Source of the DNA: a virus
Lineage: Duplodnaviria; Caudoviricetes
IMG/VR virus record: IMGVR_UViG_3300027766_000001
DNA: 64,000 nucleotides
Direction: 5' to 3' (one strand)
Shown: one piece after another, positions 54,694-54,803 of the stretch
Position numbering within the stretch: position 1 is the first letter of the stretch
How the letters are laid out: every line of letters starts with the position of its first letter
Made by a program: the position numbers and the translations under genes
The notes under the pieces: model-generated
Told to the model about the DNA's origin: nothing
What the model saw: the letters and a program-made list of their open reading frames with translations, nothing else
The model's database searches: none

Positions 54694-54803
54694 TGTCGTT
54701 AGCCTGATGAGTCGCCGACATTAAACGCGACGAAACGTAGAACATGAAATTCATCCACTGAGGATTCACCACCTCGGTGCCCGCTAGGCATGTTCTATGT
54801 AGC
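54694..54803 (+). ncRNA. Type I hammerhead ribozyme candidate with loop II pseudoknot
   Basis: CTGATGA (54704-54710), stem II GTCGC/GCGAC, GAAAC, 12-bp stem III, GTA triplet (cut after 54801), and TGTCG/CGACA pseudoknot. Stem I is only 2 bp. Confidence 0.72.

Follow-up and report, generated by a model that had tools for sequence, protein, structure and literature searches.

Pseudoknotted hammerhead ribozymes are the closest described relatives of the RNA reported here. Perreault et al. 2011 (PMC3088659) demonstrated experimentally that pseudoknots of this kind drive fast cleavage, and found them in hammerheads of types I, II and III, often in phages; approximately 40% of hammerheads, across the three types, rely on one, with many of them located in intergenic regions of phages and prophages. 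Changes in the spacing around the pseudoknot reduce the cleavage rate by orders of magnitude. The first-pass annotation of the present locus had given pseudoknotted hammerheads, and the occurrence of hammerheads in some phages, as established background, and that paper bears this out; as such RNAs have been known since 2011, the locus adds no new kind of catalyst. Rfam clan CL00010 (Hammerhead_1, Hammerhead_3 RF00008, Hammerhead_II, HH9 and HH10) holds the same ribozyme class. A second point of comparison is provided by the theta ribozymes, minimal HDV-like ribozymes that lie directly beside phage tRNA genes and have been proposed to act in tRNA-linked RNA processing (Kienbeck et al. 2024, PMC10879173). 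The word “hammerhead” is absent from that paper, no mention of a tRNA-adjacent hammerhead was found in the accessible part of PMC3088659, and our search of the open-access literature yielded no report of hammerheads associated with phage tRNA arrays or with jumbo phages.

The DNA analysed here, a stretch of 64,000 nucleotides that we call the window, comes from a jumbo phage. Its relatives include Salmonella phage SA002 (288 kb) and the Erwinia phages pEa_SNUABM_48/37 (294 kb). On the evidence of its sequence, we assign a probability of roughly 0.8 to the reading of positions 54694-54805 (plus strand) as a type I hammerhead ribozyme with a pseudoknot between loop II and the 5' extension of stem I, with self-cleavage predicted between 54801 and 54802. 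The parts of the element are as follows.

54694-54698 (+): 5' strand of the pseudoknot, UGUCG, within the 5' extension of stem I; complement of 54716-54720
54699 (+): linker of 1 nt from pseudoknot to stem I, from the family parse; 2 nt in 20 of 20 relatives
54700-54703 (+): 5' strand of stem I, UAGC, pairing with GCAG 54802-54805 as U·G, A·A, G-C and C-G
54704-54710 (+): catalytic core C3 to A9, CUGAUGA, read in the sequence; N7 is U or C among relatives found by BLAST, the rest unchanged
54711-54715 (+): 5' strand of stem II, GUCGC, G10.1 included; 105 of 105 cells standard, compensatory change in four of five pairs
54716-54726 (+): loop II, CGACAUUAAAC, 11 nt; pseudoknot 3' strand CGACA at 54716-54720, family-conserved UAAA at 54722-54725
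54727-54731 (+): 3' strand of stem II, GCGAC, C11.1 included, read in the sequence and with covariation in the family
54732-54734 (+): catalytic core G12 A13 A14, read in the sequence and kept in relatives
54735-54746 (+): 5' strand of stem III, from A15.1; 12 bp with 54789-54800, one of them G-U
54747-54788 (+): 42-nt insertion capping stem III, with an inner hairpin 54756-54763/54772-54779 in the minimum-energy fold
54789-54800 (+): 3' strand of stem III, CATGTTCTATGT, to U16.1, from sequence and fold
54801 (+): H17, an A; predicted scissile bond 54801/54802, from the core geometry
54802-54805 (+): 3' strand of stem I, GCAG, also the start of the predicted released downstream RNA, from sequence and family parse

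The order of these parts is that of a type I hammerhead, with the 5' strand of stem I followed by the core, the stem II hairpin, GAAA, the stem III hairpin, GUA and the 3' strand of stem I. The core holds C3 U4 G5 A6 N7 G8 A9, G12 A13 A14 and an H17 that is not G, and three helices are present with G10.1-C11.1 and A15.1-U16.1 as closing pairs. Most of this agrees with the first-pass annotation. The core in its right order (CTGATGA at 54704-54710, GAAAC at 54732-54736), stem II as GTCGC/GCGAC (54711-54715 and 54727-54731), the complementarity of TGTCG 54694-54698 to CGACA 54716-54720 and the GUA triplet (54799-54801, ending at A54801, which places the predicted cut between 54801 and 54802) were all read where it had placed them. 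Its 12-bp stem III, which includes a single G-U, also stands, but with a slip in strand position, as CATGTTCTATGT occupies 54789-54800. The 2-bp stem I that it described (GC 54702-54703 with GC 54802-54803, flanking the junction) is correct for Watson-Crick pairs, but the relatives show a stem I of 4 bp in the family, which here is UAGC/GCAG.

Similar to the hammerheads described in PMC3088659, the element combines the same catalytic core and three-way junction with a Watson-Crick pseudoknot that replaces loop-loop contacts and aligns stems I and II. The phage subfamily to which it probably belongs, defined below, differs from them in having a 4-bp stem I with an NGUCG/CGACN pseudoknot 2 nt 5' of it, and in that the loop II strand of this pseudoknot consists of the first five of 11 loop nucleotides, the loop also carrying a conserved UAAA. 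We looked in the supplementary files of PMC3088659, primer table included, for six strings that typify loop II in the family and found none of them.

A descriptor specifying CUGANGA, a stem II of at least 4 bp, GAAA, a stem III of at least 5 bp, UH and a stem I of at least 2 bp found exactly one site in the 64-kb window, the hammerhead at 54694-54805. The chance expectation, from 200 dinucleotide-preserving shuffles of the 64 kb scanned on both strands, was 0.005 sites per shuffle, and a stricter descriptor (stem II at least 5 bp, stem III at least 8 bp) gave 0 sites in 200 shuffles. The predicted fold of 54690-54815 includes stems II and III and has a z-score of -2.97; in the minimum-energy fold, UGAUGA of the core is also paired to UCGUUA, a pairing that would amount to a competing, inactive hairpin.

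We evaluated the locus against the Rfam 15 hammerhead models, as the first-pass annotation had proposed. No model reached its gathering score in the window or in the eight member loci scanned, and in E-value mode only one of 10 member loci (L022, E = 0.22) had a hammerhead match at E ≤ 1. The best match to the window was Hammerhead_3 (RF00008) at 54690-54741, with 30.3 bits against a gathering score of 48.5 (E = 8e-4). RF00008 thus recognises the half made up of CUGAUGA, stem II and GAAA, but below its gathering score and with the wrong, type III, topology. The short stem I, the pseudoknot and, in the window, the 42-nt stem III insertion lie outside the models, and we read the sub-threshold scores as a limit of the models and not as evidence against the hammerhead class. 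If the Hammerhead_3 alignment, with its E-value of 8e-4, were followed literally, the RNA would be a type III hammerhead cut after GUC 54695-54697. Stem I would then be a hairpin of six bases (54698-54703), which is too short, and the stem III so proposed, UCUUUGU/ACGUAGA, contains one mismatch and is lost in the relatives, while the GUC itself sits inside the covarying strand of the pseudoknot. With stem I impossible and stem III unconserved, the type III reading was rejected, and we consider it extremely improbable.

The type I arrangement recurs in other phages. Loci were collected with the pattern GTCG-N2-6-CTGANGAG-N4-CGAC-N7-13-CGAAAC, which matched 10 loci in viral contigs, 29 in metagenome contigs and 12 in genome contigs. 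An explicit parse splits the loci cleanly, as true members have all five pairs of stem II together with stems I and III, and the others have at most four of five stem II pairs and never all three stems. The viral and metagenome contigs supplied 21 distinct members, counting the window, L001 and L002. The 12 matches in 185,579 prokaryote genomes included no member (stem II at most 4/5, never all three stems) and, lying mostly in G+C-rich DNA, were taken as chance. Scanning with a pseudoknot-free pattern found no true member with another pseudoknot core; the sole addition, L013, has no stem II, lies in what is apparently coding sequence and was discarded as a false positive. Cultured phages among the members are Pseudomonas phages ZC08/ZC03, Erwinia phages pEa_SNUABM_48/37 and Salmonella phage SA002. 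This coherent subfamily of 21 phage sequences is missed by Rfam 15 at gathering scores, and a dedicated covariance model would improve phage annotation and show how frequent ribozyme punctuation is in tRNA arrays.

The architecture of the subfamily, from 5' to 3', is GUCG, U plus 1 nt, a 4-bp stem I, CUGAYGAG, 4 bp, CGAC-N1-2-UAAA-N, 4 bp, CGAAAC, stem III, GUH and the 4-nt 3' strand of stem I. Between the strands of stem III lie 2 to 53 unpaired nucleotides in the members parsed with a continuous stem III, and the insertion at its cap differs in length among relatives through insertions and deletions. H17 is A in 10 of the 21 members, C in 10 and U in one, and is never G. The window matches the subfamily consensus everywhere but in the linker (1 nt versus 2) and at stem I position 3 (A·A). 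Model R2, which was built without the window, gave 43.7 bits (E = 6e-9) on the 5' half of the window element as its sole match in the 64 kb. Models R1 and R2 align only the 5' part of the window, L001-L003, L005, L012, L016, L029 and L040; since they cannot bridge long stem III insertions, the 3' strands were taken from the explicit parse.

Covariation across the subfamily supports all three stems, each of which carries compensatory changes among the 21 members. Over the 21 members, standard pairs occupy 78 of 84 cells in stem I, 105 of 105 in stem II and 97 of 105 in stem III, values reached by none of 2,000 partner shuffles of the 21 sequences. An Infernal alignment of the 12 short members had 97.8% of cells paired, compared with 75% for shuffled partners and 29-47% for partners slid along the alignment; 0 of 500 shuffles reached this level. 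Compensatory change was present in 12 of the 15 nested pairs of these short members, and the three invariant pairs are G10.1-C11.1, A15.1-U16.1 and C15.2-G16.2. Closer to the window, the relative L003, whose downstream protein is 85% identical, shows compensatory change in stem III (A-U versus G-C), and a U·U mismatch in its stem III is a U-A pair in the window. The compensatory change between window and L003 implies that stem III pairing has been kept in the window's lineage.

For the pseudoknot, the four GUCG/CGAC pairs are invariant in every member; as they were fixed by the search pattern, they speak neither for nor against pairing. The fifth pair (U54694-A54720 in the window) was left free by the pattern and is standard in 20 of 21 members, appearing as UA, AU, CG, GC and UG, a level of pairing reached by 0 of 20,000 shuffles. 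A sixth candidate pair was at chance level in the 21 members. The covariation of the fifth pair thus supports the exact extent of 5 bp that had been proposed for the pseudoknot. Similar to the four fixed pairs, CUGANGAG, CGAC and CGAAAC were fixed by the scan pattern, so core invariance within the subfamily is by design.

Conservation of the core is instead seen in pEa_SNUABM_48/37 and SA002, which were found by BLAST without any motif pattern. The hammerhead lies within an ORF-free region of ~660 nt (54423-55083) that is flanked by two hypothetical genes and conserved in the two Erwinia phages, SA002 and two metagenomic jumbo phages; its mean column identity is 77% in a three-way alignment of the window, pEa_SNUABM_48 and SA002. 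The core, stem II and the pseudoknot (GUCGU, loop II CCGAC) are unchanged in these three phages, which are ~70% identical across the intergenic region, the sole core difference in the alignment being CUGACGA in pEa_SNUABM_48, at the free position N7. The first-pass annotation had staked its reading on conservation of the core in relatives, and the relatives found by BLAST do keep the core, N7 alone varying, despite flanks of ~70% identity. The annotation tables for the corresponding stretches of pEa_SNUABM_48 and SA002 have no entry where the hammerhead region would be. A coding explanation for the conservation was rejected, as a 149-aa minus-strand ORF in the window splits into pieces of 43-52 aa in L003; no conserved ORF spans the hammerhead site in L001 or L002.

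These data also bear on the idea of a conserved structural RNA that looks like a hammerhead and does not cleave. Although such an RNA would fit the sub-threshold Rfam scores, every catalytic-core position is present and H17 is never G, the three-helix junction covaries just as a hammerhead requires, the tertiary link between stems I and II is in place, and relatives found by BLAST keep the core amid flanks of ~70% identity. We regard a look-alike as very unlikely. Judged from sequence comparison, this large phage very probably carries an authentic hammerhead RNA that cleaves itself.

The window copy is the outlier of the family, being the sole one of 21 members with a 1-nt linker and the sole one with A·A at stem I position 3; L003 carries the standard linker and stem I form. 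A second alternative is that the family consists of real hammerheads but that these two defects, which the window alone possesses, have left its copy attenuated or dead. Stem I retains two Watson-Crick pairs and the pseudoknot geometry would be shifted, and in the type II ribozyme tested by Perreault et al., changes in pseudoknot spacing lowered cutting activity by orders of magnitude (PMC3088659). Since spacing changes lower the rate in that ribozyme, the window copy may be slower to cleave than its relatives. It nevertheless keeps its core, its stem II, the full five-pair pseudoknot and a perfect 12-bp stem III, and the compensatory change in stem III relative to L003 points to continuing selection. 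With A54701 bulged, an alternative stem I would have four pairs, C-G, G-C, U-A and U·G. Hammerhead cleavage in cis tolerates short stem I helices. We consider an attenuated or dead copy unlikely.

We found no second copy of the ribozyme in the 64-kb window, and each of four jumbo-phage records of 232-294 kb holds exactly one. A single copy per record makes excision by paired ribozymes unlikely, and excision or circularisation by paired copies was rejected on this ground.

The position of the subfamily relative to tRNA genes suggests a function. Ten of the 21 members begin 1-17 nt after the 3' end of a tRNA or tRNA-like element. Four of these follow a canonical tRNA at that distance (tRNA-Arg in L004, tRNA-Leu in L006 and L022, tRNA-Met in L011), L007 comes after a tRNA-like T arm ending in ACCA, and five jumbo-phage members come after one of two tRNA-like domains, A or B. 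The tRNA-like cluster that the first-pass annotation had placed around the ribozyme thus holds in the window and generalises to the subfamily. The RNAs flanking the window element are the following.

54430-54529 (+): tRNA-like domain A, directly upstream together with domain B; a 7-bp acceptor-like helix GUCCGGA/UCCGGAC, then ACC
about 54539-54690 (+): tRNA-like domain B, with an intact T arm, GGGUUCGAGUCCC
54802-55003 (+): conserved ORF-free structured RNA after the predicted cut, from the five-jumbo-phage alignment and a terminator scan

Neither ARAGORN nor the Rfam tRNA model called domain A or domain B. Most of domain B is deleted in SA002, and L005 lacks it altogether, its hammerhead coming straight after domain A; these losses make B look dispensable, and it may be a decaying tRNA gene. 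The extended arm of domain A has a 7-nt hairpin loop, AACUUAC, that is unchanged in all relatives, on a stem that covaries (CCCU/GGGG versus CCCG/CGGG).

The RNA downstream of the predicted cut gave no Rfam match at E ≤ 10 over 54802-55003. Its consensus fold in five jumbo phages comprises 68 pairs, shows compensatory change at 18, and includes a covarying long hairpin, CUGCUCA 54848-54854 with UGAGCAG 54878-54884. Terminator-like hairpins with U tails are present at 54918-54949 and about 54966-55003. In the consensus fold, helices of this downstream RNA take in the nucleotides that immediately follow the predicted cut. One candidate helix, GCAGUGA 54802-54808 with UUACUGC 54907-54913, has its complement in five of five phages, with a register off by 1-3 nt relative to a conserved CCGGUU anchor; in the RNAalifold fold, the partner of 54805-54810 is about 54836-54841 instead, and three pairs of this helix are compensated.

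In the mechanism that we propose, stems II and III would form closed hairpins, stem I would be short and open, and the UGUCG/CGACA pseudoknot would keep stem I alongside stem II. Self-cutting would take place co-transcriptionally, between A54801 and G54802. The upstream product would consist of tRNA-like RNAs A and B with the ribozyme and end in a 2',3'-cyclic phosphate, and the downstream product would be the conserved structured RNA of ~145-200 nt, starting with a 5'-OH. The role of the ribozyme may be to separate tRNA-type RNAs from the next RNA and to set the 5' end of the latter.

The recurring placement after tRNA or tRNA-like genes suggests a processing role for the subfamily as a whole. 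Tentatively, it could be a general punctuation mark in phage tRNA regions, cutting 1-17 nt after a tRNA or tRNA-like 3' end and giving the next RNA a 5'-OH end without RNase P. The next RNA would be a structured non-coding RNA in the jumbo-phage clade and the leader of an amidoligase mRNA in others. In the jumbo-phage clade, the first nucleotides after the cut would re-pair inside the released RNA of ~145-200 nt, possibly coupling cleavage to folding. For these phages, the scheme would connect the ribozyme with the 5' end of a conserved RNA in a way that can be tested.

Such a role would parallel that of the theta ribozymes, with an opposite mechanical outcome. Similar to the theta ribozymes, the subfamily is a small ribozyme, with self-cleavage predicted here, that adjoins phage tRNA genes, but it belongs to another ribozyme class, the hammerhead. 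In HDV-like ribozymes the cut falls at the ribozyme's own 5' end, so that the 3' end of an upstream tRNA could be freed, whereas a type I hammerhead cuts at its own 3' end, staying on the upstream tRNA and freeing the downstream RNA.

Several observations were made in the sequences around the members. Five loci (L006, L016, L022, L029 and L035) have the ribozyme ~170-270 nt upstream of an ORF with a common N-terminal sequence, and the two of these ORFs that were scanned, L006:1041-1742 and L035:2791-3393, match Pfam Amidoligase_2 (PF12224). The tRNA-Leu immediately upstream of the ribozyme in L006 and L022 is tRNA-Leu(UAA). In the window, TATATTAC occurs at 55036-55043, just past the terminator-like hairpin and 41 nt upstream of the ORF that starts at 55084. 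It is conserved in L002, L003 and L005, with TACATTAC in pEa_SNUABM_48, and may be a phage promoter element; its two occurrences in the window are not above chance. The member L011:8864-8929 is Pseudomonas phage ZC08 (KU356691, about 42370-42435). In ZC08 and ZC03 the member sits between tRNA-Met and tRNA-Asn, and the sole annotated feature under the match is tRNA-Asn. From the cut to the next tRNA-Asn, ~250 nt are conserved between L004 (150-449, minus strand) and L011 (8929-9170), for example CGUGGAUGAGUUGUUACCCUUAUCAUCCAUGA and GGUAGCCUUGAGAAAGCU, which suggests that this stretch is another non-coding RNA released by the ribozyme.
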